Assembly: GCA_036172245.1 (NCBI GenBank)
Contig: JAYWIR010000015.1
Coordinates: 3,100,001-3,164,000, forward strand
From: Raillietiella orientalis
Lineage: Eukaryota
Direction of reading: 5' to 3'
Length of the DNA: 64,000 nt
Within the stretch, counting starts at the first letter, position 1. The number at the start of each line of letters is the position of its first letter. Below the pieces are notes generated by a model, which worked only from the letters and a program-made list of their open reading frames with translations, was not told the origin of the DNA and searched no databases. Shown piece after piece: positions 20,361 through 43,963 of this stretch. Position numbers and translations under genes: made by a program.

Positions 20361-20698
20361 GTAAGTATTGTAAATATCACCTGTGATTGCCCACAAAAAA
20401 TTTTTTCAGGAGGAAATTGTATTTAGCAAATTGGTACAAAGATCGAGGTACAAAAAACTAGTTTCTAGTAGTGTATTAGGAAATTGGACACGGTTTGGAT
20501 TTTTATTACAGTGGCATACGTTTTATTAAATTACAAAATACCCACAAGTTTATAGTAAAGTGCACAGCAATTTCAACCCTGGAATGACATTTTGTGGAAT
20601 CAATAATATTTTGTAGGATTATTGCATTACAAAGTAAAGCGTTTTTTTTTTTTAAATTTGTTTAGCCATATGTTATCTTGTTTGAGAAATACTATACG

Positions 20699-20962: not shown

Positions 20963-21009
20963 TTGGAAAACAGCACTGCATTTCATAAATGTATTTTGCT
21001 TGAAGCTTC

Positions 21010-21562: not shown

Positions 21563-23630
21563 GACTACTGATTCACCAACAATACTTGAGTTCCTAAATG
21601 ATAAATAAATGCAGTCCTTGAATACATATCAAACACTTTAGCTAAATAGATTTCATGCTAAGTGGATTTGATAGAATCCTCAGAAAAATGCAAAAGCTTG
21701 TTAATTTTAGTAAAAAAAAAAAAAAAAAGTCGATTTCAAGAAAGTTTAATTTATAAACTGCTTTAACAGCAACTATCAGCATGAAAATATGTAAAACTTT
21801 ATAATATTACGTATGCACATACTTGTTCTATTCCGCTAAAGTAAGCAACATTACACTTTACTACTAACTGTAGTAAGTATGCAAGTTTTCTGTAAAAAAT
21901 TTTTCCTATGAAGACATTCGTATAAAAGTTGTTGCAATGCTTCCTTTTGTGCATTGAAATATCCAAGGCTATACCTCTACACCTTCAACTATTGTAACTG
22001 CTTAATACTGCAATATAATTCTCCCTCCAAAATACACTTTCGAAATGCTTGTGAAAGTTCATTTTGTAGGAAGACTGTATTCAACATAGCGCACTGCACA
22101 CATCTGAAATAAACTGGAGGGCATGTAGTCTTCATGCAAGCATACATAATAGGTGTCATTGATTATCCAGTAAGTATTACTGCTAATCAAGTTCAAGACA
22201 TTCAAGAATTACAATTTTTACCAAATTGTACAAAATGTGTACAGTCGGCTACTATTCCACTGTGGTAAGCATAGTACATAGCACTGCATCTCAAACGCCA
22301 CACAATTTTGCCAGGAAAGTTGTTAAAGCGCTCTAAAAACAGAGTTGGTAGGCCGCAAGACATAGTGACTCCATCACACACATTCACTCGATCCTACCCA
22401 ATCTCTGAGAAATATCCAAGTCTGAAAGCACTTGAAAGTAGAAGGCCCCCTGAGATTGCGATTAGCCCATCTCGGCCCCATGTCAAACGAATATTTTTCT
22501 TCGCCGTGATTGTGGAAATTTGAAGACTAACATTTAGATAATTTCTGATGCAAAAGAACGGCTTGTGAAAGCTAAATTACATAACACGGAAAAGCAGTTA
22601 ACACTCGTATAGAACGAGTCTCTAAAGAGCTCGTATGAATACGAACTCTTCGAGATGGATTGGGATGCGACGAGTGTTCCTTGATATGTAGAAAATGACC
22701 CTTACAATAATGGATTTGTTTATCGAAAAATACATTGTATATATTTTTACTTCTGCATTCTGAATATCGCCTTTCCTCTGATAGTTTAACCGAGTGCTAT
22801 TAACAATTCTGCTCAAAACTCTATTGACATGAAAACACTGAAATGAGTAACGATCTTGTGTTTAGTGCACTGGTCACTTTTAGCGTGCTTTCCATAAGTG
22901 AATTTTTTGGAAAGAAACAAGAAAACAACAGTTTGGGAAGGTTTGTGCAGATTGTTGTAATTTCGGTTCACCTCCAAATTTTCCTATCAGACTTGCCAAT
23001 AGCTTTTCACACGTCACATAAAGAATGAAATATCAATGAGGAAATTGTGAAAATGTCGAAATTTTCTTAGCTCAGCTAAAAAAGAAAATCGAAAATTCAA
23101 CAAAAAAGACACAAGCTGTGAAGTATTATGAAATTTTGTAAAGTAATTCCAAAAGTGTGAAAGAACATTTCAAAGAAGAATAGATCAAACTAATGAATTC
23201 AAGATCGCAGAGATCTTATAGGAATGTGCAACTCTAAATCAGAAACAGAGTCAACTGGATTTACAAAAGTTGACTCCATTAGCAAATAATGAAAAACCTA
23301 AGACAAATAAGTGATTTGAATACAAAAAATAAGTGAAGAAAGAATGTTTTTGCAACATTTTAGACTATATAATCTGGAAGTATTGGGTTCATTATGCTCG
23401 CTAGATCCCATGTGCCTTTTAATTTTGAAAATTCAGTATTTAGGACTAAAATGTTCTTTGTGTTTTGAAGTCCAGCAAGTTTTTGTTAATTTTTCCGAAT
23501 GCTTCCAAAATCCCAAGGAAGCTTTCTTTGAAATCACACTCTTCCTCAAGTGAATGAAAACCTAGATACGCACTCAAAAGCAAATGAAGAGAAATATTTT
23601 CTCACCTTCCAATTTTTATTCTAGAAAAAG

Positions 23631-23676
23631 AAAACTTTTAGCACTCATTTGCAAAAACTTTTAGCACTCATTTGCA
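23631..23676. repeat. 23-bp perfect tandem duplication
   Basis: aaaacttttagcactcatttgca occurs twice in a row. Confidence 0.8.
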
Positions 23677-24576
23677 ATTATAAGCAGTTCGCATTATTGC
23701 TGTTGTAACTAAATGTACAAGATCTTCACGTATAAAAGGCAATTGTATAAGTTGTGGAATAAGAAAGAATTCAGAGAAATTATTACTCAAAACTCATCAA
23801 GATAATACAATAGCTTTATTTTTTACACAGTAGATGTCCATGCAAGGTGAAGCAAATGAAATGGTCAGAATCGAATCTTTAATATTATAATTTAATGGAA
23901 AGTGAAAAATTACAATATCAAAGGCTTTTTAAACTATTAGTTAAGTTAAATCTTGAGAATGGTTTTTGTGCTGTACATTAGAAGAACTACAACCAATTAC
24001 TTTTCAGTGATTCGAAGCTGTTCTTAAGGAATATATGCCACTTGCCAGTTAAATTTTCAGGAATGAGACCGACTTGAATGTTTTCTCTGAAAGAATTCTC
24101 TTGAATAGCTTGATAGGGTAGAAAGAAAATCGTATAAACTCATCATCACTTTCGGAAACTTCAGCTTGGAACTATTTCCCTGCTGCAATACAGCACATGC
24201 ATACACATTACTCTCTGGTGTCGATCACAACCTATAAGTACCACCAATCACATGCAAAATTTTTAGCTTTCGTAAGTTTGAAACAAAGTGCATTTTAACT
24301 CCATACTCCTGATGTACATCCGAATTTATGGAATGCTTTTTCTGAAATTGAAAGCTAAATCTTAGATCCCGTATGCCGGAAAATTCCCGAATCTATGATC
24401 AAAACGGGAACAAGAGACGGCAATCCCTGCAATTTGGAGGGGGATGTTCTGTTTCTGTAATTGTAACCTTAAACAGACCCGCGGTTCTCTAACTGCAGTA
24501 ATGGACTCCTATGTAGCTCATTCGCAGGAGCTCAATCTTCAGTTCGTATTGTTGTTGGATTTACACTTTCGTTAAC

Positions 24577-25018: not shown

Positions 25019-27747
25019 CTGCGAAATCGAGTGCCAGTCGGTGCGTCCAATGAAAATTCTTACCGTATTCTTGACGTCTTCTAAGAATTCATATGTGTTG
25101 AGGAATGGACACACACATACTTTTTGACTGCGAAACTCGGAAAAAAATTTTCAAAATGGACTAGGCTTTTTTCAAAAGTGAACGGAAGCGCGTACAAACA
25201 TGCACGGCCGTCTTGCTTGCGTGGCGTTCTCCCATGGCTGTCTCAGGGTCCTCTTTAACGAACCGCATCGATGGCCGCTGAGGTACATGCCCGGAGGTTG
25301 GCGTTCACCTAGGGCTGCATGCAAAAGATGCCTCCCTCCCATAAAGACCTGTGTGCAGTCATCCTGTGCGCGTCCCATAGGACGTGCGTCGTGGAGCCGA
25401 TGATGGCGAACCCTCTTCTCCAACCTCCGGAACGGAAGGCGCACAGGCGGTTTCCTGCCTCGTTCGCACTCACTACCCGGCCTTGCCTCCTTGGCGTCTC
25501 CAAGGACCGGAACCAACGTGCAACCCACCAACGATCCTTTTCTTTTTCTCCATCCTCAGAAGAGAAGTGGAGAGGAGAATGGAATCTAGTGGAATCTAGG
25601 AAGGTAGAAGTCCGTCATGTTCTGTCGTGTAGTTCTGAACTTCTGTAGATCCATCTTAAGGGGGAGGGGAATAGAAAAAGAGGGAGGGAAAACTTGTCCC
25701 CGAATTCAATGACCTCTGTTCAGCAGAAACAGGGAGCCCCAGGAAGCCAAAGGCTCACTTGGCAGGGAATATGGAGAAGCGCGTTTCCCTTTGTTTTTTC
25801 TCGAGGTCCTTTCCTCCCAAGGTGCCTCGGTTCCCCGTGGGTAGTGCCCCTGCGCGACCCAAGGCAGGGAAGAGATGAACTCCCCCTGGCACTTGCTGTG
25901 GGCTAAAAGGAATGCAGCAGCATCCCCATAGAGCATCCAGCATGCTTCTCGAGGACTGATTCCCCGCTTTGGTCGGTCAAGAGAGCGAGAAATCGCCGCA
26001 AGAGCGAGCTGGAAAGGGGAAGGAAGGAAGAGCGCAAGGAAATACAGGATGAGGATCCCGCTGAGGACAAGAGGGCATAGGGCAGCAGTTTCAAGACGGC
26101 TTAGAGCAGTTTGGCCTTCCTCCGGGTTCCCGAGGTGATGGAGCCGAAGGGGAAACCGCGGCGTCGGGGCTGTCAGCAGTCGCTAACCTACCACCGCCTT
26201 AGGCGTTTTTCTGAGGGCGTTCAGAATGACCAGGAGCACGAGAGCAGAGAGGCTCTCTCCCACCCACACTCCTTTCCCACCCGCCCCTTTCCAAAGAATC
26301 ACTCCAGCGATGGCTGCCGTCTCCGCGACCGCTCCGGGAGCTGCACGGAGTTGGCGGCAGCCACGGGAAGCGGAGAGGCTCGGAGAGGTCCTTTGATCCT
26401 CTTTGGCTCCGGATGCCGGATCTCTCTCCTCCCTCTGCCTGCTCCTTGCTGGTCCCGAACCCCATCGGGACCAGCAAGGAAATACTCTTTCTCGAGGGCA
26501 GCCAGCTCGCCCTCCCGACTTGACGCGCACCTCGTATGCCTTCCGGAAGCTGGGAATGCCTTGATCCCGTGGTGGCTGCCCGGTCACGTAGGAAAGCAGG
26601 CGAGAGTTGCCTTCTCCCTCCCCCTCATTCCTTCTTCCATTCTCTGCCGGCCCCTCCGTGAGAGCGTCAAATAGGGCAGGAAGGGAATTTGTGTGTGGGG
26701 GGGGGGATCAGCGACAATCGAGGGAGAGAAGGGAAGCGGCGGCGGAGGACAGCGATCCGGAGTCCCGTAACAAGGTGCCGGGCAAGCTTTCCCGGTGTCC
26801 CCCGAGTGCCTTTCCAGAAGGCTTCGTCTTTCTTGAGGAAGGGTAGGGGAAAGAAGCAAGGTCGGGACCCGTCGTGTCTGTAGCGGTTGCTGCGCGACAC
26901 CGAAGGGGTTCCGATCGCCGTGAGGATCCTGTGAAAGTATTTCCCACCTTCGCTTTCAGGAGGTAACAGGGAAGGTCCTCCCCTTCCTAACAGGGCATGC
27001 TGCTGGCTCGGTTCAGCGTGTGGAAGGGCGCGTTCCTCCCTCCCTCTCCCTGCTCCTTCTCCTCTCTGTCGAGCCGGCGGTATCCCCGGGCTTCGCGACT
27101 GTCCCGCGCCGTCGCCATACGGACCGCCCGAAGAATCGCGACCGCCGAGAGCTCTGGCTTTAAAAGCTGAGGGTTCGCCCCGGATTCATGGCAAACATCC
27201 GTTGCGACATGCGGAGTCGGATCATTACCGGACATGTGAAATGTGTATGAGGTTGCGTGTATGAGGAAGAGATGAGTGAAATGGGGGGTGAGTAGGAGGA
27301 GGAGGAGGAGGAAGAGGATAGGGGCCTCCGGTTTTCAATGGCTCCTGAAGGACCGTCTCGATTACCGCCTGCTGTCTTGTCGATGCCTTTCATCGTCTCA
27401 CGCTGTCGGCTGCCCTGGAGACACCTTCTCGTTTCCTCCCGATCTCCTGCCCTCCTCCTGCAGTGGCAACAGCCTCGAATACTCTTCGCCCCCTGTGGCC
27501 GCTCCCTGGGGACGTTGGCCTCTGCTCTGCTTCCTCCTTCCGCGCCTCTCCGGAGCATCGAGCGACTGTCCGGGAAAGAGACCTCTGTGGCTCTGCGCTC
27601 GTCGGATGAAAGGTGGAGGAACAGAGGCGCTTTTTGGGTGGGGAGGGGAGAAGTGAATCATCCTCCGCTCCATTCCTGTTCAAGTGCTCCTATGCTTTCT
27701 CATTCGTCTCAGGTGGGCAGCGGCGGCGGCTGCGGTCTCTCCCTGGG

Positions 27748-30452
27748 ATGAAATCCTGCAGAGTGTGCGGCAAGGATGAGCCGGAACACATGTGCACTTC
27801 CTGCGGGCGTGTCCACTTCTGCAATGAGCACGTGAAGGAGAAAGAAGACCATCAAAAGGCGTGCCAGAAGTGCGAGATAGTCCTGGCCTCCGGCAAAAAA
27901 CGCTCCGCGTACATGGTGACGACTTGTTCGCTGGAGCCCGGGGCGCTGGTCCGCGTGGAGGAGCCCATAGTGCTGATTCTCAACTCAAATAACCCCCACT
28001 GCGCGGGCTGCTTCGCACAGGTCCCTCTGGTCTACCGCTGCGAACTGTGCAACTGGCCTCTCTGCAGCGCGCTCTGCCAGTCGAGTCGGCACCACCAGCC
28101 CGAGTGCCAGCTGTTCTGCGGGTTTAACACCCGATTGCGGCGGATGCCGGTGACCTTCGGAATGCTGCCGGCCCTGCGTGTGCTGGCTCTGCGTAGCCAG
28201 CAGCCCAGTCTCTGGGCGAAGCTCCCGTACATGGACTCCCGGGATCCCAACTCCAAGCTCAAGCAGAACTACACGCAAATCATCCGGCGGTGGGGGATCG
28301 AGGACTTCCTACGCTTCCATTTTCCAAACCACCGTTATTCCCGGGAGGCGCTGATGCTGGTGTGTTCCTTGCTGGCGTCCAGCACGCTGTCGGCAGGCTC
28401 GATGCCAGGCGGGACCGGTCACCTCTTCGGGTTGTACCCGGAGCTCTGCTGCATGGAGCATAGCTGCTTGCCCAACTGCTACCTGGGCATCGGAGACGCC
28501 ACGGACCCCGTGGCCTTGAGCGCGGCGATCTCTGGGGACATTCGTAGCAGCAGCTACATGATCTTCGCGCGCTGCACCCGCAACATCCCTCCGCGTGCAC
28601 GTCTGACGATCGACTTTATCTCCAAGCTGTCGCCGACGGCCGTCAGACAGTACAAGCTGACTCTCAGGGGCCGCACCTGCAACTGCTCCCGCTGTGCGGA
28701 CCCCACCGAGCTGGGCACGTACATAGGCGCGTTTCAGTGCTTGAAAAAGCAGTGCGAAGGCTCGGTGCTGCGCGTGCCCGAAGACGCCTTCGACAGCTTC
28801 TGGTCTTGCGACAAGTGCAGCATGCAGCGCTGCAACAAGGACATTGCCGAACTCGCGGACATCATCGCCAACCAGTTTAGGGAGATCGAGAACGTTCCTT
28901 TGACCGATATCCCTTTGACCGATATCCAAGTTGAAACGAAGAAGGATGAACAATCAGAGAAAGATGAGGAAGAGGAGCAAGGCGAGTCAAAGGTCAAGCC
29001 CACGAAGAAGGCAGCAGCACTCCTGCTCGCCAAGAAGGCAAGCTCGATAAAGAAGATCAAGGAGTTGAAGGAGGCTGAGAATTCACAGCCGTACACCCTC
29101 AGGCAGTCCTTGGAGGAACTACTGCGGATGCGCGTCATGCAGTGCCACAGCTTCATAGACTGCATCAAAGAATTGGTACATCCCAACTACTTCCTTATCC
29201 TACGCTCCAAAATGATGATCACCCATTGCTACGCGGATGCGTGCGCCATCGGGGCAGTGCAAATTAGAGAGCTCATGGAAGCTTACGACTTGTGCAAGGA
29301 AGTCCTCAGCGTCCTCATTAGGATCGAGCCTGGTAAGTGGTTGCGTGAGCCTCGTACTTTAGGCGGATCGCCCGGTGTACGCGGGATGGTGGAGATCGAG
29401 GCTGCGCTCGGTTTTCTCCCCTCCCTCCTGTCCTTTCTCGGAGGGGATAAGCAAGGGGGTCTTGGGATGGGCGTGCAGCCTCACCGGACAAAAGTGACGG
29501 AGGAAGGAAGAAACTCTTTTTGAGGGCAGCACGCGCTTGAAACCGGGCAAGATGCCAGCTCTCCCTTCATTTCCTGGCCACTTTTTCTTTTTCCGTTTGG
29601 GAAGGCCGTAGAGCGCGGTGCAGTGGAGGCAGGGTGGCTCCCGTCAATCCTGCCTTCAGTTCACAGACCCATTTTCACCTCCTCTTCCTCCAAACGGGAG
29701 AGTGCAGAAAGACTGGTGTGTCCACTTTCCATTTCCATCGGCCTTTTTCCTCTTCCATCCTCGGTCTCCCCTTTTTTACCGGGCTCCGGCTGACAATCCT
29801 CGTCTCCCGGGAGTCCTTGCAGAGGCCAAACTATTCCTTCTGGATGGGGGAGGAAAATGCGCCTCTTGGAATCCCCCTCCACACCTTGGTACTTCTCACC
29901 GGATTTTCCTATTCTGCCTTGTAAGGAAAATGGAACGTGCCGTAGGGCAAGCGGGGTGGCGATATGGGGGAAGGGAAGTGAGGGTGGGAAGAAGAAGAAA
30001 AAAACATCGCCTTTCTGCTTTCAGGGGCGTTCCCAGGCCGCGGGATCATGGAGTATCGCTCTTTGCTCTTCGAGCAGATCCTCAGAAAACTGACGATGAT
30101 GAGCTCCCCTGCCACGATGAACAAATGGCTGGCGGAGGTGAGGCCGGGATCGAACGGGTTCGAGGGTGAGGGTGTGCTCAAGTGTCCCCTCCTGCCCGCC
30201 GAAGGGAGGAGAGGGAGTGAGTGAGCAGGGGGAGGAGGAGGTGTAGGAAGGGTCAACGTGCTGATATCTACCAGTGGGTCATCTCGGTGGTTTCAGAAAG
30301 CCGTTCTGGAGCGCCTCCTGAGCCAGATGACCGTGTGGTTCGATAGAGTAGAAGGAAATCGCCCTATGGACATTAAGGCCAAGAAAATGCTCAACGCCCA
30401 GATGGCATTCATTCGGCTGCTGTTGAGGATAAGGAAATGGGCAGAACCCTAA
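27748..30452 (+). CDS. SET and MYND domain protein, arthropod SmydA/msta-like (paralogue 1, ~617 aa from this ATG)
   Basis: Exons 27748-29332, 30025-30137, 30297-30452. N-terminal MYND-like finger (CRVC...CTSC...C..H...H...C), split SET with inserted MYND (CAGC...CELCNWPLCSALCQ...HQPEC), MEHSCLPNC, post-SET CNCSRCADPTELGT, LVHPNYF, IEPG. An acceptor ending at 27712 suggests an additional upstream exon. Confidence 0.9.
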
Positions 30453-33400
30453 GGGGGTGATCGCCGCCGACCCACCTGCCCACCTGCCCCCCCTTTCTGA
30501 AGACGTAGCCAGGAGGCTGATTAAAAGTGACACGATCTCTTTCGTCTTTGTTGTCGCGAGGAAGGAGGAGGCACCGGGAGGCGTTCGGTTGCACCAATTC
30601 CTTGGTTGTCTCGGGTAGAGTGGGGGAGAGATGAAGGAGCGATTCACAGGAACAGGACAAGACGGGAAGGTTCCCAGCGCCGTGAGGCTGGAGTGACCTC
30701 GGCACCAGAAAACATCGCGCAGCCGCCTCCTCTCTTGTTGGTCTCCTCCCAGACCCAAGGGAGGAGATCCTGGATGGAACACGGTGCCTACGGCACGAAG
30801 ACAACAGCGCCCCTTCTCACCGGTTTTTGCTTTGATTCCCGAGGGAAGACTTGTGCACCCTTTCTAGCATAGGAGTGAGCTGTGGGATGCGACTGCGGCC
30901 TACCTCGGCTCCTATGATTGAAAAAGTTTTAACCTGGGGAATTTATTATAATTTGCAAATAAGCATCCGTGAGCCAAAGAAAGGTCATCTCATCGCATGG
31001 GGATAACGAATCCCACCAAGGCCACCGCATCGGTAGGAGTTCAGGAGGCGTCGGCAAGCAGGTTGGCCAGAGAGGTCACAAAGTTGGAGGGGAGAATGGA
31101 AGGGAGCGAAAAAATAATAATAATAAACATCATGAAGATTTGTCTTGAAAATCACGAAAAAAACTATGAGGGCATAGGGTTAAGGATGGGATCACCAGCA
31201 ACCTCCCTGGAATCCTTAGCATCCTCTCGAGGGTTCAGATAAGATCCTCCTTGTGAGACCTCAAGTGAGGCAATCTTGCCGTGATCGTCAGAAAAGAGAG
31301 CACAACAGACGTGAGATCTGCTAGTCTGGCTGCTTTCGGCGTAGCTTCTCGCTACCAGTGATCCTCTCAGTGATCTATGACTGTAGAGGAAACCAACTAA
31401 TAGCCTCGCAACAATGCCATATCGAAGACAGAAATGGGACACACGGAAACGGATGGATGCGCCAGAGAAGAAAACACCAGGGGGATCTCGAGGTTTTCCA
31501 GGGATAGAAGGCAGGGGTAGAAGTGTCAGCAAGCTGAGTCGCCGTCCAGTATCCCAGCTCTTGCCTTCTTCCTACGATATCCTTGGCAAGAGACCTCCCA
31601 TCTTGCCGGCTGGTCACTGCGGTCGTTCTTCCGCAGGATGGCACGACGCCGCTGAGAATGTGGGCTGCCTTGTGCCCACGCGTTTCTTCTTGAGACTTTT
31701 TACGACCTCCTTCGACGAGAGCGGCTAGAGAGACGCTGGCACTGCGGTTGCTCCAGACTTCAACCACGTCTAAACCAGGCGCTGCCGTTCGTCGGCAGGC
31801 AGCAGATCCAGGAGGCGCTCCGCACCAACGCATTCGTCTGCCGAGCTGCTATGCGCGTCGGTTTGATCTTTGATGGCCACTCGCGGAGGAAGATGTCGGT
31901 CAGTCCCTCGGAGCCGACTGCTCTCCTGGAGAGGGGACGGATGTGCAGGGACTCACGGGCGTGTCACCTGGCCTCTAGGGTGAGCCTTCGAGATCGTAGC
32001 CGTCACCGCTCCATCCGCTTCAGAACCCATCCCGACGCGGGGCTGTCAGGTCTTTCAAGAGAACATGGGGGCTCCCTGCGCCGCAAAGGGCTTTCCGTAG
32101 GAAGCCTTGGGTTCGTTTTTGACTACACTACGGAAAGAACAAACAAAAAGCGGGAGATGAGGAGAGCGGTCCGTTCCGGAAAGAGAAGCTTGCCGTCCAG
32201 GAAAGGGCCAAGAGCCGATGCCTTCCGCGGGCATCTGGACCAGATTCGTCTTCTTTTTTCTTTACCGCCTCCCCCTTTCTTTTCCTGGCAAAATGCTTGC
32301 GAGCGAAAGCACCTCCTGGACTCGTACCGACTCATTGGACTTGGTGATCCATTCCACTGAGATGGGATGATCTTTTTTTTGGGCCACGACTTATTTGTAA
32401 ATTCTGATGAACGCCCCGGGGCGATCGGGTAGCAACTCCCCTGCGGACAGAACCGATATGGGGATTTGGCGCTCCGCCAGCTTCCGCCAGTGGCTGTCGT
32501 TTCCACTGGTCCGCGTGGGTTTGGATTCGGCACCTGAGCGGCGACAGTGTGGCAGAGATGCCAGCAGTCGTCGCTAACGAGGGAAATGATGACGGGAGAA
32601 CCTCGTCACACCTGTCCGTGGAGGCGGAATGCTGCAGTCACGAGGGAATTGACTCTCGGAAACGGGAAGGCATGAAGCCAGGTGACTGCCGTCTGGACGC
32701 CCGCGGTCCAGGCGGAAACGAGGGTTCGCATGGCCAAAGTTTCCGAGCCGTCCTTGCTGTACAAAGAGGAGATTTTGTTGGGGACGTGCCATGTCCAGCA
32801 CGTCTCCCGGAAACGTGTCCTCTTCCCTCCGGGAAAGAGCGAAAGAGGAGACTGCCATCTCGTCCGGTCTCGCTCGTTGGGGAGCATTCGGATAGGACGA
32901 TCCCATAGTCCCTGGCTTCCGGCTTCTCCCGACAAACGCGAGAGAAGCAGCAAGAAAAGAGATTTTCGGAAAGGGAAGAGCGCCAGGAAAAGAGATTTCG
33001 GTGGCATACCTTCTGTTTCTTCCAGGAAACTTCCTTGAGATGGAGGGAACATCGCGAAGATCTGCAGATGAGACTGAATGGTTGTCGGGCGGGGCTTCAC
33101 TGGGAAGTGCGTGGCACTGGGGAGGGGATCCGTGGACTGACTTTCAATATGGAGGCGGGCGAATTGCTGACCGAGAAGAATCTCTCCCTGGATCGCTGGG
33201 GATGGGAAGAGAAGGTAAGAGGAGGCAAGCGAAGATGCATCCGGCCATCGTGCGATACCGTCCCTTCGGCTGAGTTGCGTCTTACTGCCCCGGCGCGCAA
33301 GAAGAGCGCTCTCTCGGGGGAGGACCTCATTACTCTGAGAGTCCCTCAGCTGAGAGCTCTTGCCGTTCTGGAGCTTCTCCTGTTTCTCAGGGGCAGCTCC

Positions 33401-33927
33401 AGTCGCTTGTCGCTTGTCGGGCGACGGCGAATAGCCGTCTGTCAGGATGCTGGGAAGTACAGTTTCTCCTCCGTCCTTTTCTATCGCTTCTCATTCGCTG
33501 TCACCCCATTGCAAATTTTTTTTTTCAACCAAAAAAAAAGGGGAGAGGGGCGCAAGAGTCCATGAGGACCACTGCCTCCACCCCGAGTGGGAAAGTGGGC
33601 CGAAGGTGGTCGATGCCAAAGCGGAAGCGACCCCCTTCGGAGACGAATGGGGGAGCCGCTGACGACCTTGAGGAAACCGTGCCTTGGGGCTACCCTGGTT
33701 CACACCAACGAATTTTTGCTTGGCAGCGCTGGGGACTTGTTCGTTGCTAGCCGTTCTTGGAGGGCAGCATGGAACTTTGAGCCGGAAGCTGCTACGAAAG
33801 ATCCCAGTCACCGAAGTTGTGGGGCCCAAGGTACGCTACCCACGAGTGGTAAGGGAATGTGAAAGATGCTCCTCCTCCTCTCCTGAGATAGCGCAGCTTT
33901 GCATTTCAGAAGAGTCCAATCTACTCG

Positions 33928-36342
33928 ATGCTAAGTCACTTATCCTCCGGAGAGGGTGCCTGCACCCCAGGCCCTGGAGACGGAATGCAAATGGAGTTTG
34001 ATCCACCCTCTGTATCCACGAATTTGAGAAGGGGCACGCTGGGCGCCGGCACTGTGGTCTTGAAGGAAATTCCTCTGATTGTTGCTCTGGACACCAAGGA
34101 ATCTTACTGCATGGGATGCTTCTCTGATGACGAACTGGTGTATCACTGCACCACGTGTGGGTGGCCACTATGCAACCCTAGATGCCAGAGCAGCCTCTAC
34201 CACAAGCCCGAGTGCAACCTCTTCAAAAGTCACCAGAAAATGCTGGAGGTGATCCCACCGCCCTACCAGGCCACGCTGCTACTGAGGGCGCTAGCGTTGC
34301 ACTATGGGAAGTGCTCCCGCTGGACCAGTATCTTGGAGATGTACCCACCCTCGGGACAGCACATTGACTCCTTCCTCGCAGAGATTCCCGAGGAAGCCCC
34401 CGAGAGAGAGATCATCTTGCTGAAGTTCCTTCGCGCTCACTTCCCGAAGGAAGAGTTCACCGCAGGGTTGGTCCGGCAGATAGCGGAGGTGGTCGGCGCG
34501 GCGCATCTGCGGTGCATCATAGAGCTCTCCATGATCACCAGGAGCTTGCTCCTGATCGCCGGCACGGAAAGCGCCAAGCTGGAGCACAGCTGTATCCCGA
34601 ACTGCTACGTGGTGTTCACGGACGGAGAAATCATATTGCGCACCTGCGAGATCCTCAAGGAGGGCGAGGCGATGACGGTGAACAAGACCTGCTCCTTGCA
34701 GCCCACATTCCTGCGGCGACGAAGGATGTACGAACACCGCGTGCCGAGGTGCCGCTGCGCCCGCTGCGCCGACGTCACAGAGCTGGGCTCGTTTGTCGGA
34801 GCAATCCGTTGCGACGCCTGCAAGGAGGGGTTCTTGCTGCCTTCCGGGCCGGACGATGACAGACTTCCATGGCACTGCAGCAGGTGCGATGCGTTGTCGT
34901 ACCAATGCCGGGATTCCATCGGATTCATCGAGTCTCAGTACAGCCAGCTGGAGCAGGGCACCATGATCCTTCTCGACAGAAACGACGTCTCCCTCCACCT
35001 GGACTGCGCCAGTAGATGGAAGACCTTCGTGGAGTACTCTCTGCAGTTCGTTCATCCCAACTACTTCCAGATAGTGAAAGCCAAGATGATGATCGCCGAG
35101 ATCTTCTGGAAGGTTTCCCAGAAAAAAACCCTCTCGGCTGCCAGTTGCGCCCTTGCTGGACAAGCGTGTTCCCACGCTCTCGATGTCATCCAGATGATCG
35201 AGCCAAGTAAGCGCTTCTCCACTTCCGAGTTCTTTCGGCTGCAAGAGCATCCCTACAGTGGGGGGGAGTCCTCCACCCGCTGCGAAGACTGCACCCGTCC
35301 TGAGAGGTAAGGAGAGGGAGAGGTCAGATCAGCTGTGAAGGGTGAGCGTACCCGACCCTTCACAGTCTCCCTCTCCGGATGCATTCTGGTAGCATCTCCT
35401 CGGCAGAGGGCTCCACCACCCCTCCAAGGAAAGCGACCATCCCACCCATGTTTCGGGGACGGTGAGCGATGATTCCGCTCCTCTCCGAGTCACCCATCCC
35501 TCTCTCTGCTGTTCTTCAGCAGATCTAAACATGTGGTTCTTCCAGGGATCTCTTGCTCGAAGGCCAAGCTCAAGTACCAGAAGTTCATCTTCGAGAGAGA
35601 ACAGAAGATGGTCTGGGGAACCGGTGTTAGACCTGAAGAAAGGGACGTAATGAAGCAGGTAAACGAGCGAGGGACGTACCGCGAACGGAACAGGATGGCA
35701 GCAGAGAAGAGGGACCCTAGTTTCGGGAGATGCATCGCCGCGGGCGCATTCGATCTCTAGATGACGGTCCTGTCCGACACTACCTTTGCATTTCCAGAGA
35801 GCTTCTCCTGCCCCGCACTTTGCCTGTCCCACCCCGCAGAAATCGAATGCTCTTCCTCCTTCCCCCACGCCCACACTCCCCCCTTTCCGCTCATGCAACC
35901 GAGAATGTTCTTTTTTCAAGGGGAATCCACGAGCAGCCTGTGAGAATGATCAGGTCTCAATTTTGATCTCTCGGTAATATTCCGAATCTGCTCCTCTCCC
36001 TCTCCCTCTCCTTTGCCCGTTTGACAGGAGGATGAGAAGAAGAGAAATACTCCAAGACGATCTGAGTTGCTGAGGTTTCACAATCCCTCTGAAGGACCTT
36101 TTACCTGCCACTTTGCCACCGCGTACTGGCGTTGCTCCCATGGTGAAGCGCGTAAGCCGATGTTTCTATTCTCTCTCCTGTTCTAGGTGTTGCAATCGCA
36201 GTTGAGGATGCTGCAAGACTGCTCGTTTGCACTGTGGTACCAAAAAGAAGGATCATACTTCGACGCCCTGAGATTAGATCTTTCCAGGAACCGAAACTGG
36301 GTGAGACTGATGCATGCATACCACTCGAGCAAGGAAGATTGA
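33928..36342 (+). CDS. SET and MYND domain protein, arthropod SmydA/msta-like (paralogue 2, ~515 aa; start uncertain)
   Basis: Exons 33928-35206, 35546-35658, 36187-36342. CMGC...CTTCGWPLCNPRCQ...HKPEC, LEHSCIPNC, CRCARCADVTELGS, VHPNYF, IEP. The last two exons (113 and 156 nt) have the same lengths as in paralogue 1. Confidence 0.88.
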
Positions 36343-39300
36343 TTATGTCATGACAAGAAGGACGCCACTCGCGGAGGGAGTGATTAGAAGTTTTTAAGGG
36401 CAAAGGAATAAAAATGTCTGGATACTTTGCAAGTCGCTTTCGAAAGCGTAACGAGTATGGGAGGCAGGAGAGGGAGGGTTAGCTCAAGGAGCTATGGTGA
36501 TTACAAAAGAACAAAAAAGAGGCACAAAAAAAGACCATTTCCTTGGGTTTTGGTAGCGCTGCTGACGTTTTATGCTAAGCAGTAGGTTGCCGAGCTACCT
36601 CCTTTTAGGACTCTGTCATCCCTCTTCCTCTCCCTTCCTTCAGGGAAGTTCTGGGCTTTGAGTCTGTAGCTAGATGGGTTCTTCCCACTCCATCACAAAG
36701 GCATTGGACTGCCTGACGGCGATACGGCTGCACCTCCTGTAATAGAATGAAGAAAGGATTCTGGAAGGAAAAAGCATCGAACTTGAAAAATTCCGACACA
36801 CCGAACGAACGTTTTGCGAAGAAAAGCCACTTTCTTGAAAACCACCGCAGGCTGTTGCCGGAGCCTGCCTTGCAGAGGAGTGAACCTGTACGTTTGCGTG
36901 CACGTTTTCTGTGGTGCGCGTGCCGCTTGCATGGAAGCCGCCATGTTGGATGAGCTTGCGCCTCCGGTGGCATATCGAAATGCGCTCGTTTCACCTTTCG
37001 CGACCCCCCAAACGGAAAGTCGCTTTTGCCAGCTTTGTCGCTGCTAAAAACCGAACAAATGAAACGACTAACAAAAGAATATCCTTACGCTCCCGATCGC
37101 CATCCCACCGCCAGAACTGCTGAAAAAGTTTGCGACTGCTCCGCCCCGCTGCCCCCTCCTTTTCACCGCGCGGATCGTATCCATGGAAGAGCGATCCTTT
37201 TCCCCTTCCTCTCTCTTTCTCTCGTTTTTGCTTCCTTTCTCGAAGCAAACGAAGATAAGGCGAAGAAAACCCGAGAAAAAGTTGATTGGAATCGGCACTT
37301 GATGCAAATCCTGGACCACCGAAGGATCAGATCTTGGGAAGCTGCTGCACGAGTGAATCAGGTCTGCGCGTGAGCTATTTATTAGTCGAAGAGCCGATGC
37401 TTCCTATCCTACGTCTTCAGTCCGCATCCGAGAGGAAATGAGCAAAGTAACCGAATGAGCGGGGGGAGGAGGGGGGGGTGCCCCGCCTTCATATCGCTGG
37501 CTGCTGCAAACGACTTCGCAGAGAGCTCCGAGGCACTTCCTTGGCAGGCGGATGAGTCGGCGGGACCGCTGCCGCTTTGGAGAAACCGCACGGACCTTCC
37601 CACCCACGCGCCAAACTCGAGGAGACCACGTGCCGGGATTCGAGGAGTGAAGGAAGGAGCGGGAGGGAAGGAAAACTCAAATGCACGCACGCAGGTCGTC
37701 GGGCAGCCGAGGCAGTTCTCTTCCTTGGGGTCCCTCCCCCCCATCCCCGCATCCCGATCCCCGCAGAACGATTCCCACACGAGAGGGTGGGGAGGGGCCC
37801 ACAATGAGGTAACGCTTTCTTCCGCCGAATGCTCCGGTCCGGGAGGTTCTTCTTTCCTTTGGTCCGCTACCGCCGAAGCTGCTGAGCTCCTCAGGAGATA
37901 TCTCCGCGTGTCCGGGGATCGCGCAGTTACCCCTCCCTCATATCGTGGGATATTGCGCGCTCGCCTCCGGGTCCCCTCATCCTTCATCCACCATCCCTGA
38001 GGCGCCTTGACGTGCCGAAAGGAAAGCGCCGCTGTAGAGATGCTTCTGCTGGAGGCGCCCTCGAGGAGACCCCAGCAGCTCCACGCGGGCCCTACCCCAA
38101 AAAGGGAGGGAAGAGAGTAAGTAGGGGATGCTGGTGGTGACGGAGAGAGAGCAAAATAAGGAATCAGCGTGATGAGGGGCTCCTGGGGCTCGTCCACCCC
38201 AGTAAGGCGAAGTAGCCGCGAGGAAAGCAAGGAACCCCATTGGTATGGGAAGGAAAACTTTTGGGGGAGGAGGAGGGGGGGGCACATGAAAGGGAGAAAG
38301 GAGGGATGAAGGTGGACAAGAGAGGCTGTCGCTCCGGAAGAAGCGCGCGTAGCTCGATCGAATGTTCCGTGGCGAGGCGGAGTGAGGGGTCACTGAGGTC
38401 ATCGTTGAGGGTGCCGAAGAGGAGGGAGGGAGACTGTCGACCGGAAGGACGCTGCAAGCCTCCCCCCTCCTCCTCCTCCCTCTGCACGTACGAGCTCATC
38501 CCTCAAAGCTCCAAGTCAAGGAAAGATCGGTGCCGCTCCGCCTTGGCCTCCTCGCCGGATCGGTACGCAGACAGCAGAGGCTGAGGCAGTGTCATGAGCC
38601 CAGAAGGGAGGGGGGAGGGAACACCCTCACTTGCATCTCCACCCCCTCCACTCCCCTTCTCTTGATTGCATGCCTTCTGGCACCGCGGACCTCCCGATGA
38701 GTGCGCCCCTTTCCGGGTGCTCCGGGCCCAAAACCCTTGCGGCCCCTTTCTTACCCCTTCCCCTCCATCGGTCGCACGCGTGACCGGAGGGGTTTCGCGC
38801 TGCCGAGTTTCAACCTCCCTTCTCCCACAACGTAGGGCACGCTCTACACGACGCCCCCTTGCCCTCTTCCCTCCAAGGAACGAAATGCGCGCCTGCGCTC
38901 ACGCGTGGATTCCCTCCGAACAGCGACAACTGAGGCTTGAAGCGGAGGGGGGGGGGCAAGGGGAGTCGTCCGTCTCTCTCTCCCATCCCCTCCAGGGTGC
39001 AGCCACGCCAGCCTTCAGCTATGCTTCCTCTTTCCCTCTATTCTCGTTCCCTCTCCCACTTCCGCGTGTACTGCCATCGCTACGGAACCTCGGGGAAGGT
39101 CCGATCGCCCCGCCCCGCCCCTCGCGCGAGCGCACGCGCACGCGCACTGTCGCAGCCGAAGGAAGAACAACAGGGAAAAGGGGAAGGGGGGGGGGAAGGT
39201 CGACGCCTTTGAAAATCACCTGGGAATGACTTTCCGAGGTCAGTAGTGCCCCTGATTTCGAGGCCGAGTGTCAACCGCCCTTCAGACGCCGCTTCGCCCT

Positions 39301-39396
39301 CTGGCTGCCGGCATCGCTCCTTCGGAAGTTGGAGGGGACTAAGGAAAGAGAGACGCACGCGGAGGAGGTGGAAGCCGGAGAGAACCCGTCGCCCTC

Positions 39397-42300
39397 ATGG
39401 TGCCTCAGGCGGCGGCGCCCGGCAAGAGGCGCCCGCGACGCAGAAGAGGGGGAGATTCCTCTGTCGCTGCTGCTCCTGATCCCAATGGCGTTTTTGCCTC
39501 CTCTGCGTCTGCTTCCGATGCTGCTGCTCTCCTTGCTGTTCCGGCAGCCAGTGAGCCTCATGACGCTCGCCTTGGTGGCGCTGCTGGTCTGCTCGATGTT
39601 CCTGCCGCCGCTGAGGTTCCCAGTTCTGGTCCTACTGCTGTTGATCTTAGTGGTGCTCATGCCGCCTCTAAGGTTCCTTGTGCATCTGTTCCTGATGCTG
39701 CTACCGGTGCTGTGCCGCATGCTCACCCTTCCAAGGAGAGAGGTAAGGGAAAAAAAACGCGCACGGAGGTGGGGGGGAGAGCGGCGAGGAGGCGGCTCTC
39801 GCGGTGGGAGACCGAAAGGCGGCGCCCGAGAACCCTCATGGTCCGCCTCCCTCCTCCTTCCCTCTCGTCCCATCCAGCCCGCTGTAACATGACTCCCTCC
39901 CCCGACCGGTGAAGCTCGCCGTCTTGGTACCCGGGGAGACTCGCTGTCCCCGTGGCCATCGTCATCGCTCCGGCGCCCGGTCATCCGCCCCGGCTCCATC
40001 CTGGTTCCCGGCTTTTCGGTTTCGCTTCGGAGGGACAACTGGGCGCGCAGAGGCACCGCGCCCGCACTTCGCGCACGAGGACTTTCTCTCCGGATGAAGG
40101 CGACGTGCGTGCCTCTCAGCAGCGGAGGCCGCAGACCTCCAGCGCATGCGCTCCGCTCACGCGTGCGCGCAGCCGTCGCCGTTTCCGCTGTCGTCGCCGC
40201 CACCGCGCTTTGCGCCCGCGCGGCTCGGGTCGCACGGGTGGTGTGTCGCCGGTAGCGCAGGCAGCAGCGGGAAGGAAAGTTGGCTCGACGGTCGCGGGCC
40301 CGCAAGGACGGGTCGCGCGCGGAAGATGCGGGGCCGACCGGCCCCTGGATGTGACGGATGCCGCCGTTCCTCTTTTCACCCGAGGATCGCTGCTGTGGAC
40401 GAGGTAACCAAGACGACCGGGGCGAGTGGGCCGGGTGAGATGCACACACCTGGACCGGGAGGAGGAGGAGGAAGAAAAACAGGCGGGTGCGCGAAAGGGG
40501 AAGGAGGGAGAAGGGAAAGGAAATTCGTGGCCTCCCCCTCCCTCCTCCCTGCTGATAAAGTGCATCCTATCGCCTGCTGGGTTCCCCCTGCGCATTCGTC
40601 CCGCGGGAAAGGGAAGGAGGAGGGGGGGGGGCGGAGCGGCGGGTCTACCAACAGGGGCAACGGCCGCTGCCAGGCTCCCAGCGCAACGCTTCCGTGCGCG
40701 CACGCGAACTTGCGCGGCGTGCGCCCGCGCGCTTTCGCCCTGCGGCGCATTCCTCCGTTCCGGTCGAGAGTCGGACCCATCGGTTCCTGCTCGTGCGCTC
40801 GGATGGGAGCGAAAAAAATCAGCAGCGAATCGACGGATCCCCCCCCCCCACGATCCGGGTGGGAGAGGCCCCGGGATGGATTGCCGTCGAGGTGGACCTC
40901 CTCCCTGCAGCTGCCCTCCCCTTGTCGCGAGGAGCCGTCCCCGTCTCCTCGGGACGTCAGCAGGGAGGCGCTCGTGGGTTCGGGACGCGCTCCCGCAGCG
41001 AGAACGGCGGACTTTTTACCTCCTCGAGGAAAGAGCTTGCGGTTTGCTTGTCCCGGCTGAGCTTTCGCTTCACTCCCTTCCTCTCCCTTCCCTTCCTTTC
41101 CCATCCTCTTCCCCTTGAGCATCGCCCGCCACCGCTGCCGCTCTCTTTTGCAGAGGCTGCCAGGCACCTCCCAATGAACTGCGCCGTCTGCAGGAAGAAG
41201 GCTTCCCTCGCGTGTACGGTGTGCCAGACCACGTTTTACTGTGGGGAGCAGCACCAGGAGAAGCACTGGAGAGAGCACCAGAAGGTGTGCAGGCAGTTCC
41301 GCGTGGACATTGCCGAGACTGGCGTTTACTTACGTCTGGTCGCCAAGCAGAAGATCCAGATCGGCGCCCTGCTGATGACGGAGGAGCCGCTGGTGATGGC
41401 TCTCTCCGAGACGAACCCTTACTGCCTCGGCTGCCACGCGGACCTGCGCGGCAAGGACGTGGGCACCTTGACCTCCCGCGTCTACCGGTGCCGGCGCTGC
41501 AATTGGCCTCTGTGCAGCAAGGCGTGCCAGCAGAGCGCGCGCCACCGGCCCGAGTGTACCCTGTTCTCCAGCCGCAAAACCAAGCTGAAATGCATTCCCT
41601 TCTCCTACCTCATCGTGCCCCTGCTGCGCTGCTTGGCGCTCAAAGACCGGAATCCGGAATGGTGGCTGTCCCTCATGAAGATGAACAGCTACCACACAGA
41701 GAAAAAGCACAACACTGTTTACTACCTGGAGAAGAGCCGCCTGTCAAACTTCGTGCACATCCACCTGTCCTCCCAGGAGTTCCCCCACGAGGTTCTGCAT
41801 CACCTGTGGAGCGTCATCAACCTGCGCGGCTTCCAGGTCTCCTATCCCCTCGCCTCCGGCAAGGAGGAGCGCACCTTCTGCCTCCTGTACCCCGAGGCGT
41901 CGCTCCTGGAACACAGCTGCGTCCCCAACTGCTACGCGATGTTTGACGAGGAGCGGCGCATCATGGTACGCTCCTCCAAGGAGATCGCTCCCGGGGGGAT
42001 ACTTACCCTGAGCTTCGCCCCGCTTTTTCTTCCCACCCGTGAACGACAGGAGTACCTATCAAGGTTCCGCCTGCGGGACTGCAACTGCCTTCGCTGCCGC
42101 GACCCCACCGAGTTCGGCTCCCGCCTGTGCTCCATCCGGTGTCCAATGTGCCAGCAAGGGGGGTACCTGGTGCCTCAGGATAGGGGAACCTATCTTGTGT
42201 GGGAGTGTAATCGCTGCTCGGACGCTTCCGTCACGGAGGACGCCTTCAAGCTTGTCGAGGAGACAGAAGACCGGTACTTTGAGATTAAGGAAGAGATGGA

Positions 42301-43963
42301 GACCAAGTTGCGGGAGGCCCGGCTTACAGGGAACGGCCAGCTGTCCCTCTTCACCTTGGACGATCTCTGCAGAAAGTGGGAGGTCTTCATCGGCAGCATA
42401 CTGAACCAAGTGCACGACTTCTACTACCGCGTGCTGATGGCCAAGTGCCACTTGGTCTTCCTGTACTACGAACTCAGTAAGCTGAGGGCTCTCATGAAGG
42501 ACCAGGTGGAGATCGGCTTTGCCTTCAGCGTCCAGAAGTTGCAAGTCATGATAATGCTGGAGGCAGGTAAGATATGCGACCTCCTACCCTTCCCATCCTT
42601 AAAGAGACTTGACTTGGCGAGTCTGGAGAGGAGGAGGACGCGCTAGACGCTCCAAGAACTCTCCCCAAACGAGAAAACTCTACAACCTTCCGCGTTGTTC
42701 CCTTTACATTTCGCTTATTCTCTCTTTTCCTCCCTTTTTCAAGACCTGTCTTCCTCTCTTCCTCCGTGGCAGGCTCGATGCTCGCCAGGCGAGCCATCTC
42801 CATTTTTCTCTCACCCATTCTCGCCTTCTGATCCTTCGGCGTGGCAGCGCTGTCAGGGTTTTGTTTTTTTTCTTCTTGATGGCGGCGGCGGCGGCGGCGC
42901 TTGCGAAGGCAGTCGCTTCCTCTTCCTCCTCTCCCCCTAACTTGGATGCGCAGGAAGAAGGCGTATCTTTCAGCTGCGCGTTCGGCTGCTGGGGAAAACC
43001 CCGTCGAGCGAACTAGTCGGACGTCAGTCCAGCTAGCGTTGATCCCTCCCCTGTCTTACAGGGATTTCGTCCAACATGGGGACCAGCAAGTACCGACTGC
43101 TCGGCTTTGAAAGGATGAAAGAGGCATTGAAGGATCCGCGGCAAAAGACTCTTAGCGAAGAGGAGCAGGTAAGGTGCTTCATCCTCTCTCTTTCCCAGTG
43201 TGTGTGTGGGGGGGAGGGGAAGCGGTGACGCCATCATGGAAAACACTTGCCGCTAACAGGAGGGTGGGCACTTTCGGAAGGGCGTGTGAAGAAATCCCAT
43301 CGCAAACATCCGTCCCGAACCCGTCGGCCGGCATAGGAGCAAGACTGTCCTTTCTTCCCTCTCATCCCACACCTTTCGCTCTTTGAAGCTCACGCATCGT
43401 GATACTGCTCTGTAACCATATTGGCGGTAGTAGGCAGCCGGTTTCCGCTTCCGGTTCCGGTCGCGTTCGCGGAGTTCATCGTGCCGCTATTCGCTTCTGC
43501 ATTCGGCCTCCGGCGACGTGTCGGCGAATCCGCCCAGAGGCTCACGCCCTCAAAAGCAGCGTACACGTTCGATCGGGTCGACCCCTGATGGCGTCACAGC
43601 GCAGCGCATCCGCGTTAGTCGTCATCCCGACAGAACGACCTTGAAGTGCTGCCTGCAACTATGCTGGCGACGCCGATGCTGCGGTCCGATGCTTTCTCTG
43701 AGAAAAACAAAGAAGCGCGACTCGTCCTCGGGGCGCTAACGACGGCGACCGCCGCAGCGCCCCGCGTGACCTCCTGACGGTGCTTATCACTGATGCTCTC
43801 GTGCATTGTATGCCAGGAGTTGAAGGAGTACTTGAACAAGCTGAAGAACTGTCACTTCCTCCTGAAATATGATCCGGACCATACTACCGGAGGAAAGATG
43901 AGGCAGGAGATAGAAAGGGAGATGGAATCCGTGATCACGAAGCTGAGTCAGGGCTCATCCTGA
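39397..43963 (+). CDS. SET and MYND domain protein, arthropod SmydA/msta-like (paralogue 3, ~670 aa with Ala/Pro-rich first exon)
   Basis: Exons 39397-39742 (tentative; phase-1 donor GTAAGG joins the acceptor at 41153 in frame), 41154-42566, 43062-43168, 43817-43963. Canonical N-terminal zf-MYND CAVC...CTVC...YCGEQHQEKHWREHQKVC, CLGC...CRRCNWPLCSKACQ...HRPEC, LEHSCVPNC, CNCLRCRDPTEFGS, C-terminal LLKYDP. Alternative start ATG at 41174. Confidence 0.9.

Follow-up and report, generated by a model that had tools for sequence, protein, structure and literature searches.

Must a protein that keeps the fold of a lysine methyltransferase also keep its chemistry? The question is raised by a locus of Raillietiella orientalis (assembly GCA_036172245.1, contig JAYWIR010000015.1, positions 3,100,001 to 3,164,000 of the forward strand; this whole stretch of 64,000 nucleotides is the window, and positions below are counted from its first letter). 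Three tandem genes on the + strand, g1 (27748-30452), g2 (33985-36342) and g3 (41174-43963, the last position being the end both of the g3 stop codon and of the stretch under study), encode proteins of the SMYD fold. An earlier note, made from the letters of the window alone, had pointed to them as an old array of SmydA-like genes whose products are catalytically dead. The sequence states, gene structures, family-wide conservation, predicted fold and common ancestry reported here were established directly. Judging from sequence, the cluster is real and made up of what are probably functional pseudo-methyltransferases, and the best explanation of the trio, likely though well short of certain, is that the fold has been kept for binding and that cofactor binding and catalysis have been lost.

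The residue on which the question turns is the tyrosine that corresponds to Tyr239 of SMYD3. According to Xu et al. 2011 (PMC3105404), each of the SMYD3 mutants Y239F, Y239A, Y239K and Y239Q is wholly inactive, and this residue is "absolutely conserved in all identified SET enzymes", which matches the earlier note's statement that the tyrosine is nearly invariant and that its replacement by phenylalanine is inactivating. The corresponding motifs of the trio are RARLTIDF (g1, 28594-28617), GEAMTVNK (g2, 34663-34686) and GGILTLSF (g3, 41993-42016), and their last codons, found exactly where that note had placed them, encode Phe, Lys and Phe. The alignment with SMYD proteins for which the note had called was run with HMMER against all PDB chains: GGILTLSF of g3 and GEAMTVNK of g2 each align without gaps to GEELTICY of SMYD3, in which the final Tyr is residue 239 as counted along the full-length chain 5ccm_A, and ARLTIDF of g1 aligns without gaps to EELTVSY of SMYD1, so that the Tyr is absent at this position in all three proteins. 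The main alignment consisted of the SET-covering domains of 142 relatives and the trio (MAFFT L-INS-i), and a second, independent alignment was anchored on the query (phmmer); Tyr occupies the column in 135 of 142 relatives in the former and in 141 of 150 domain rows in the latter. Because Tyr is near-universal among relatives in both, the occurrence of Phe, Lys and Phe in three neighbouring genes is more than chance. It is extremely improbable that the missing Tyr is an artefact of alignment and that the real catalytic Tyr lies at a shifted position: identity to the solved SMYD structures is only 14-19%, and other columns (motif I and the ribose-contacting His) do move between alignments, but the motif sits between the fixed anchors HSCxPN and CxCxRC, it is free of gaps in the HMMER, MAFFT and query-anchored alignments alike, and no Tyr occurs within it or in the next five residues of any of the three proteins.

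Two further residues of the pocket have been replaced in every copy. The Asn of the GIxxxNxFE motif, aligned to Asn181 of SMYD3, is found in 136 of 142 relatives (MAFFT) and 130 of 149 rows (phmmer), and the trio has Ser, Ala and Arg. The Phe two residues ahead of the post-SET CxC corresponds to Phe259 of SMYD3, which pi-stacks on the cofactor's adenine and whose mutation in F259A nearly abolishes activity (Xu et al. 2011, PMC3105404); it is found in 132 of 142 relatives (MAFFT) and 136 of 148 rows (phmmer), and the trio has Arg, Pro and Arg. A Gly-Pro pair just past the first SET strands (Gly in 116 and Pro in 130 of 136 filled rows of the MAFFT alignment) reads IL, AL and AL. The losses common to the trio hit the most conserved non-Cys positions of the family: Asn, Tyr and Phe are present together in 126 of 142 relatives, and all three are absent, as in the trio, from only two (P0132 and P0140). 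Given the SMYD3 mutant data, the trio bears in natural form two changes that are each inactivating by themselves, and a third at a family-conserved pocket Asn. The natural Phe, Lys and Arg or Pro reproduce or exceed the dead mutants Y239F, Y239K and F259A (PMC3105404) and differ from them in being natural and multiple, and in lying within proteins that are 14-19% identical to SMYD1-3. The claim that the three are catalytically dead is thereby supported, as far as a reading of sequence can support it. The N-terminal GR motif (motif I) and the ribose His were considered as additional losses and set aside, since their columns shift between alignments.

The genes that carry these replacements look like living genes by their intact frames, shared splice structure and codon-position bias. 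The list of open reading frames (ORFs) of the window contains three long frames on the + strand, at 27610-29523, 33892-35310 and 40559-42646, and they were expected from the earlier note to be long and intact; there are indeed no in-frame stops, but the genes are not single-exon, each adding two short 3' exons to a long exon 1. All three frames leave the family alignment at one shared point (IEPG, IEPS and LEAG in g1, g2 and g3), which falls on a donor of the G/GTAAG type in phase 1, and joining the exons by coordinates, as predicted splicing, gives a stop-free product in each case. All six predicted introns are GT-AG, with phase 1 followed by phase 0 in every gene; exon 2 measures 113, 113 and 107 nt and exon 3 measures 156, 156 and 147 nt in g1, g2 and g3, and exon 3 of g3 is recognised by a profile built from the C-terminal tails of relatives (E value 6.9e-6). 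An alternative candidate for exon 2 of g3, at approximately 43640-43765, was dropped in favour of 43062-43168, whose splice sites are strong and which is similar to exon 2 in the other two genes. Exon 1 has no in-frame stop in 528, 407 and 464 codons, against an expectation of 14.5-18.5, and none of 2000 shuffles of each was free of stops. The GC content of third codon positions is 0.75-0.82 across the trio, compared to 0.39-0.42 at second positions. Exon 1 of g1 also has two lineage-specific insertions with no counterpart in g2, g3 or the relative P0004: one of about 20 residues in the SET core directly past the HSCxPN motif, and one of roughly 50 residues, acidic and rich in Lys, in the C-terminal domain.

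The scaffold that surrounds the pocket is retained. Proteins of this family have two zinc fingers: the one at the N-terminus is a canonical MYND, and the other, which is MYND-like, lies within the split SET domain. Both are present in g1 and g3, and only the internal one in g2. The earlier statement that the MYND and post-SET zinc ligands are all kept was right for the internal finger and the post-SET CxCxxC of all three proteins and wrong for the N-terminal MYND of g2, which was found neither by tblastn nor by a six-frame scan of the window for the ligand pattern, although a degenerate finger could escape such a pattern. There are 58 alignment columns with a consensus of at least 70%, 16 of which are invariant or near-invariant Cys or His, presumed to be zinc ligands; all 16 are retained in each of g1, g2 and g3. 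Among the other consensus columns, g3 keeps 30 of 42, g1 keeps 26 of 42 and g2 keeps 24 of the 39 that are filled, compared to a median of 36 and a minimum of 19 among relatives. Past the post-SET all three carry a further Cys cluster that is invariant and is extra relative to SMYD1-3, from which g1 and g3 also differ by their additional N-terminal MYND. The Pfam SET profile is matched by g3 with 28 bits, above the cutoff of 22.4, and sub-threshold by g2 (18.3 bits) and g1 (14.6 bits). Intact frames and splice sites, together with the complete set of 16 Cys/His columns, bear out the suggestion that the genes have been retained, in so far as sequence can indicate it.

Structure prediction, which had been proposed as a check, was performed with AlphaFold 2 on the exon-1 proteins of g3 and g2, each with an alignment of 103 rows. 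The models are confident, with a mean predicted local distance difference test (pLDDT) of 92.3 and a predicted template modelling score (pTM) of 0.88 for g3, and 88.1 and 0.84 for g2. The best Foldseek matches of the g3 model are SMYD2 (E 2.9e-17), SMYD1 and SMYD3. In VIA-align, SMYD2 chain 3tg5_A superposes on g3 with Z 21.2 (root-mean-square deviation 6.2, 353 residues aligned) and on g2 with Z 20.0 (6.0, 342 residues), and g3 also matches AKMT (Z 19.7), SMYD1 (19.3), SMYD3 (18.8) and Toxoplasma PCR12 (18.2); over their best chains, SMYD1, SMYD2 and SMYD3 resemble the two models at Z 18-21 with 331-362 residues aligned. According to these models, g2 and g3 adopt a SMYD-like fold that includes the C-terminal helical domain. 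Because g3 aligns with SMYD2 only from about residue 36, its N-terminal MYND is an add-on to the SMYD fold.

The family to which these proteins belong is indicated by their architecture and by their nearest relatives. An internal finger within a split SET domain and a post-SET CxCxRC, the features by which membership of the SMYD superfamily is judged, are found in all three; the extra N-terminal MYND ahead of SET, usual in the relatives retrieved, is a Pfam match in g3, a ligand pattern only in g1 and not found in g2. A HMMER scan of 1.84 billion representatives with exon 1 of g3 retrieved 3085 proteins at E ≤0.001, of which 78 were at ≤1e-30, and word-indexed homologue searches returned two proteins for g3 and three for the family profile. 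The sole relative named for an organism is P0092, "protein msta [Eurytemora carolleeae]", from a copepod. The ESM Atlas, queried with g3 only, placed nearest to it clusters named "SET domain-containing protein SmydA-8", in which the commonest phylum is Arthropoda (score 0.95, 212 of 256 features shared). The designation SmydA-like is thus upheld by both the Atlas clusters and the named relative. Two other relatives are of unusual build: P0006 (1066 aa) consists of two complete SmydA units fused head-to-tail, and P0094 (918 aa) contains a run of 13 MYND fingers at a spacing of 71 residues. According to Calpena et al. 2015 (PMC4521844) and Jiang et al. 2017 (PMC5459927), SmydA genes are specific to arthropods and occur in multiple copies, often in tandem, and their internal finger deviates from the MYND signature; the same sources place three Tribolium copies of SmydA-3 within 4.2 kb. 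This class (Drosophila SmydA-1 to -9, of which msta is SmydA-8) is fast-evolving, and the trio resembles it in being multi-copy and tandem; the trio differs in that PMC4521844 and PMC5459927 argue for retained histone methyltransferase function, whereas the trio lacks the Tyr, the adenine-stacking Phe and the conserved Asn, and in having no close orthologue in the libraries searched, with identity of at most 37% over most of the length.

The best sequence match of g3 in the PDB lies outside this family: Toxoplasma PCKMT/PCR12 (chain 9ya0_IA), at E 4e-11 over 92 residues, which like AKMT (6fnd) has a fold similar to that of g3. PCKMT, which sits in a large cytoskeletal assembly, shares with the trio the lack of the Tyr, but PCKMT and AKMT are apicomplexan, far larger and similar only near the SET/post-SET core, and belong to a different family. 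Aligned to g3 by HMMER, PCKMT also shows Pro where NHxC has its Asn. An apicomplexan origin of the locus, at which this top match might hint, was rejected, as the neighbouring genes and nearest relatives are of arthropods.

How the three genes came to stand side by side was addressed with a maximum-likelihood tree (quick search, LG+C20, 347 columns) of 145 rows, which were the domains of the 142 best relatives plus the trio, with no Smyd3/4/5 outgroups. The trio forms one clade with a support of 88 in the Shimodaira-Hasegawa-like approximate likelihood ratio test (SH-aLRT), not starred. As two long branches could attract each other, shared derived states were also examined: the trio shares nine residues each found in fewer than 10% of relatives, and 300 random triples shared 0.30 on average and three at most, none reaching nine. 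The clade, the shared rare residues, the shared intron positions and the tandem layout on one strand support local duplication of one ancestor. The duplications are old: pairwise identity within the trio is 26-33%, and the number of synonymous substitutions per site (dS, Nei-Gojobori) is saturated. The earlier note's proposal of an old lineage-specific expansion therefore stands, with the shared intron phases adding to it. The Leu shared by all three at the family Pro column and the Arg shared by g1 and g3 at the Phe column suggest that the pocket was already degraded before the duplications, although the tree is unrooted for this purpose.

The lengths of the end branches, 1.56 for g1, 1.48 for g2 and 0.69 for g3, may be compared to medians of 0.6 for all 145 rows and 0.57 for the 135 Tyr-bearing rows, 46 of which have end branches longer than that of g3. 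Thus g3 evolves at a rate ordinary for the family, which is the clearest sign of continuing constraint without catalysis. Nor is loss of the Tyr unique to this cluster within the family: the Tyr is absent from 7 of 142 relatives, and hence with the trio from 10 of 145 rows of the tree, over which at least seven changes of state are required. The Asn or the Phe has also been lost in four of the seven Tyr-less relatives, as opposed to 9 of the 135 that bear Tyr (Fisher p 0.0013, uncorrected for phylogeny), as expected if the loss of one residue frees the others, and the Tyr-less relatives have a median end branch of 1.20 versus 0.57 (Mann-Whitney p 7e-5, n=7 and 135), with the reservation that branch length also depends on sampling density. 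Recurrent relatives that lack Tyr and have longer branches indicate that SmydA repeatedly yields members with a degraded pocket, and this window holds a whole array of them.

Against the proposal of retained, non-catalytic proteins a number of observations must be set. Part of the pocket survives, since the His of HxC is retained as EHSC in all three genes; the Glu of this motif is uninformative, being the commonest state of the family where NHxC has its Asn (E 44, N 31, A 29 and S 27 across 142 relatives). The ribose-contacting position (Asn132 of SMYD3, His in the family) is ambiguous, being aligned to R/P/Y or R/Q/Y, and g2 and g3 carry a His one residue beyond it. Toxoplasma PCKMT (TGME49_292170), when aligned to g3 by HMMER, shows Met in place of the Tyr and is treated as catalysis-dependent on the basis of complementation with H542A (PMC13518913), so that absence of the Tyr may not always mean inactivity; however, PCKMT keeps the post-SET Phe, unlike the trio, and is reported to need its catalytic His. 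The confidence of AlphaFold 2 derives from a deep alignment and is no proof of function. There is no orthologue among the 1.84 billion representatives, in which the best relatives of g3 are 32-37% identical over most of their length. Among the paralogues dS is 1.35-1.61 and the number of nonsynonymous substitutions per site (dN) is 0.79-0.95, and owing to the saturation their ratio is uninformative and was not used. Finally, the end branches of g1 and g2 are approximately 2.6 times the Tyr-bearing median, only one of 135 rows being longer than each, and this acceleration fits relaxed constraint as well as it fits new function.

Several of these observations would be accommodated if the trio were still lysine (or other) methyltransferases with a non-canonical active site, and the cluster an ordinary SmydA expansion that evolves fast. 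The fold is retained as a whole, as are the HxC His and the PN motif, the family itself departs from SMYD3 at the Asn of NHxC, the Met of PCKMT is found in a protein described as catalysis-dependent in vivo (PMC13518913), and histone H3 is methylated in vitro by the SmydA-2 of the locust (Jiang et al. 2017, PMC5459927), a comparison that is by activity and not by the residue at the Tyr column. Continued activity is nevertheless quite unlikely, because every copy has lost three separate residues that are near-invariant in the pocket, SMYD3 with Y239F, Y239K or F259A is dead or nearly so (PMC3105404), Arg or Pro in place of the adenine-stacking Phe is hard to square with binding of S-adenosylmethionine (SAM), and the sites have been co-lost across the family.

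The accelerated branches bear instead on the idea that at least one gene, with g1 or g2 the likeliest, is an unexpressed relic of a recent loss of function, its intact frame left over from past selection. Along with the long branches, the sub-threshold Pfam SET scores of g1 and g2, the loss of the N-terminal MYND from g2 and the insertions of g1 in the SET core and C-terminal domain would be expected of a relic. Yet the 617, 496 and 548 codons contain neither stops nor frameshifts, all six introns have canonical GT-AG sites and conserved phase, the codon-position GC bias is strong, the AlphaFold 2 models are confident, and all 16 Cys/His columns persist even though the branches measure about 1.5 changes per site, as they would not have done under neutral drift. 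Decay of this kind is accordingly unlikely.

The mechanism that is preferred is one of functional pseudo-methyltransferases. The three genes are old tandem paralogues, which would belong to the msta/SmydA-8-like branch of the SMYD family in arthropods (SmydA), and each is predicted to encode a complete zinc-stabilised SMYD fold with a split SET, an internal MYND-like finger, a post-SET, the further Cys cluster and a C-terminal helical domain like tetratricopeptide repeats (TPR), to which g1 and g3 add an N-terminal MYND. The cofactor and catalytic pocket appears dismantled, the hydroxyl-bearing Tyr having become Phe, Lys and Phe and the adenine-stacking Phe having become Arg, Pro and Arg, and with such a pocket productive binding of SAM and methylation of lysine are most likely impossible. 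The proteins may have been kept for a non-catalytic job in which MYND finger, substrate cleft and the helical domain at the C-terminus bind partner proteins, and they could serve as adaptors, as scaffolds or as competitors of SmydA enzymes that are still active. That activity has been lost, that function continues and that it is exerted in this way is what the sequences would imply. A precedent for a SMYD fold that works without methyl transfer is zebrafish Smyd1b, which takes part in myofibril assembly with Hsp90 and Unc45b in a binding or co-chaperone-like manner and whose methyltransferase activity is reported to be dispensable for myofibrillogenesis (Just et al. 2011, cited in Li et al. 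2013, PMC3826989); Smyd1b has an intact active site, and that of the trio is gone. A joint reading that goes further, and that is doubtful, is that the cluster encodes "anti-enzymes", SET-fold decoys that do not bind SAM and that regulate the animal's active SmydA methyltransferases by tying up the substrates or partners of these, SmydA being a recurrent source of pseudoenzymes. If so, the decoys would retain MYND finger, substrate cleft and TPR-like domain, and the Lys found in g2 instead of the catalytic Tyr might sit in that protein's own lysine channel. The Tyr's loss, with its at least seven changes of state in the tree, is accompanied by loss of cofactor residues and by faster evolution.

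Table 1. Positions in the window of the predicted exons, zinc-binding elements and substituted pocket residues of the three SmydA-like genes (a slash marks the exon/intron boundary).
Feature	Positions	Strand	Remarks
g1 exon 1	27748..29332	+	from ATG; N-terminal MYND-pattern finger, split SET, post-SET, most of C-terminal helical domain; donor CTG/GTAAGT, phase 1
g1 N-terminal MYND-pattern finger	27757..27864	+	Cys/His ligand pattern kept; Pfam zf-MYND not reached at E 0.1
g1 internal MYND-like finger	28000..28107	+	inside split SET
g1 Ser at family Asn column	28381..28383	+	AGC; SMYD3 Asn181
g1 Phe at catalytic Tyr column	28615..28617	+	TTT; = SMYD3 Tyr239
g1 Arg at post-SET Phe column	28672..28674	+	CGC; SMYD3 Phe259
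g1 post-SET CNCSRC zinc ligands	28678..28695	+	
g1 exon 2	30025..30137	+	113 nt; acceptor TTTCAG, donor GAG/GTGAGG
g1 exon 3	30297..30452	+	156 nt; TAA stop; spliced product 617 aa, no internal stop
g2 exon 1	33985..35206	+	frame open from 33892; candidate ATGs 33928, 33985, 33991, start uncertain; donor CAA/GTAAGC, phase 1
g2 internal MYND-like finger	34108..34215	+	inside split SET
g2 Ala at family Asn column	34501..34503	+	GCG; HMMER to SMYD3 picks the adjacent Ala, so Ala either way
g2 Lys at catalytic Tyr column	34684..34686	+	AAG; = SMYD3 Tyr239
g2 Pro at post-SET Phe column	34744..34746	+	CCG; opposite SMYD3 Phe259 in ungapped HMMER alignment
g2 post-SET CRCARC zinc ligands	34750..34767	+	
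g2 exon 2	35546..35658	+	113 nt; length equal to g1 exon 2
g2 exon 3	36187..36342	+	156 nt; length equal to g1 exon 3; TGA stop; product 496 aa from ATG 33985
g3 exon 1	41174..42566	+	from ATG; frame open upstream to 40559; relatives begin at this Met; donor CAG/GTAAGA, phase 1
g3 N-terminal MYND	41180..41290	+	Pfam zf-MYND, E 2.6e-8, 34.2 bits, cutoff 22.7
g3 internal MYND-like finger	41423..41557	+	lineage-specific insertion between first two Cys pairs
g3 Arg at family Asn column	41825..41827	+	CGC
g3 Phe at catalytic Tyr column	42014..42016	+	TTC; = SMYD3 Tyr239
g3 Arg at post-SET Phe column	42074..42076	+	CGG; opposite SMYD3 Phe259 in ungapped HMMER alignment
g3 post-SET CNCLRC zinc ligands	42080..42097	+	
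g3 exon 2	43062..43168	+	107 nt; acceptor CTTACAG, donor CAG/GTAAGG
g3 exon 3	43817..43963	+	147 nt; TGA at 43961-43963; product 548 aa

Elsewhere in the window, a gene resembling SCAPER (S phase cyclin A-associated protein in the ER), with a C2H2 zf-met finger, lies on the - strand at 5435-7142. Among the 46 matches of its ORF at 5435-6337 (-), the first that is not from an arthropod is Haliotis rufescens at rank 32; the 21 organism-named matches ahead of it are all arthropod with 36-54% identity, from insects, arachnids, a millipede and a mantis shrimp, none of these lineages being close. On this evidence the host of the window is an arthropod without a close relative among those sampled. 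Exons of a gene resembling that of angiotensin-converting enzyme (ACE) lie on the - strand at 49036-52556, probably continuing to about 57000; Pfam Peptidase_M2 is matched by three ORFs (E 1e-22, 6e-14 and 1e-17), the ORF at 49368-49724 contains the zinc motif HHEMGH, and the surrounding sequence is richer in AT than the SmydA array. A striking compositional step is formed by a 12 kb block of 28-34% GC (12001-24000), flanked by sequence of 43-60% GC; only one ORF of at least 110 aa touches it (11819-12280, -, at the 5' edge), and it has one small tandem repeat at 23631-23677. The spacer upstream of g3 (37400-41170) is 63-65% GC and has very long open frames on both strands. No Pfam match was found for the spacer ORFs at 39271-40566 (-, 431 aa), 37412-38389 (-) and 32609-33490 (-) or for the 205 codons upstream of the ATG of g3, and the long GC-rich spacer ORFs are probably an effect of composition or a promoter region like a CpG island. 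Rfam at gathering thresholds and ARAGORN detected nothing in the window.

Pseudoenzymes as such are common, and SmydA is the largest and least understood expansion of the SMYD family in arthropods. Its genes are treated as histone methyltransferases (PMC5459927). A search of the full-text literature, supplements not covered, for papers linking SmydA, SMYD or SET with terms for pseudoenzymes or inactivity returned none on inactive SmydA members, and the words "pseudoenzyme" and "catalytically inactive" are absent from the text of the SmydA papers that were searched. A tandem array in which the fold is kept and three pocket residues are lost indicates that part of the SmydA expansion is probably non-enzymatic, with which the recurrent Tyr-less relatives agree. 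If this is true, annotation of such genes as "histone-lysine N-methyltransferase" is misleading, and the array offers natural equivalents of the Y239F/K and F259 mutants of SMYD3 with which the catalysis-independent functions of SMYD proteins may be studied.

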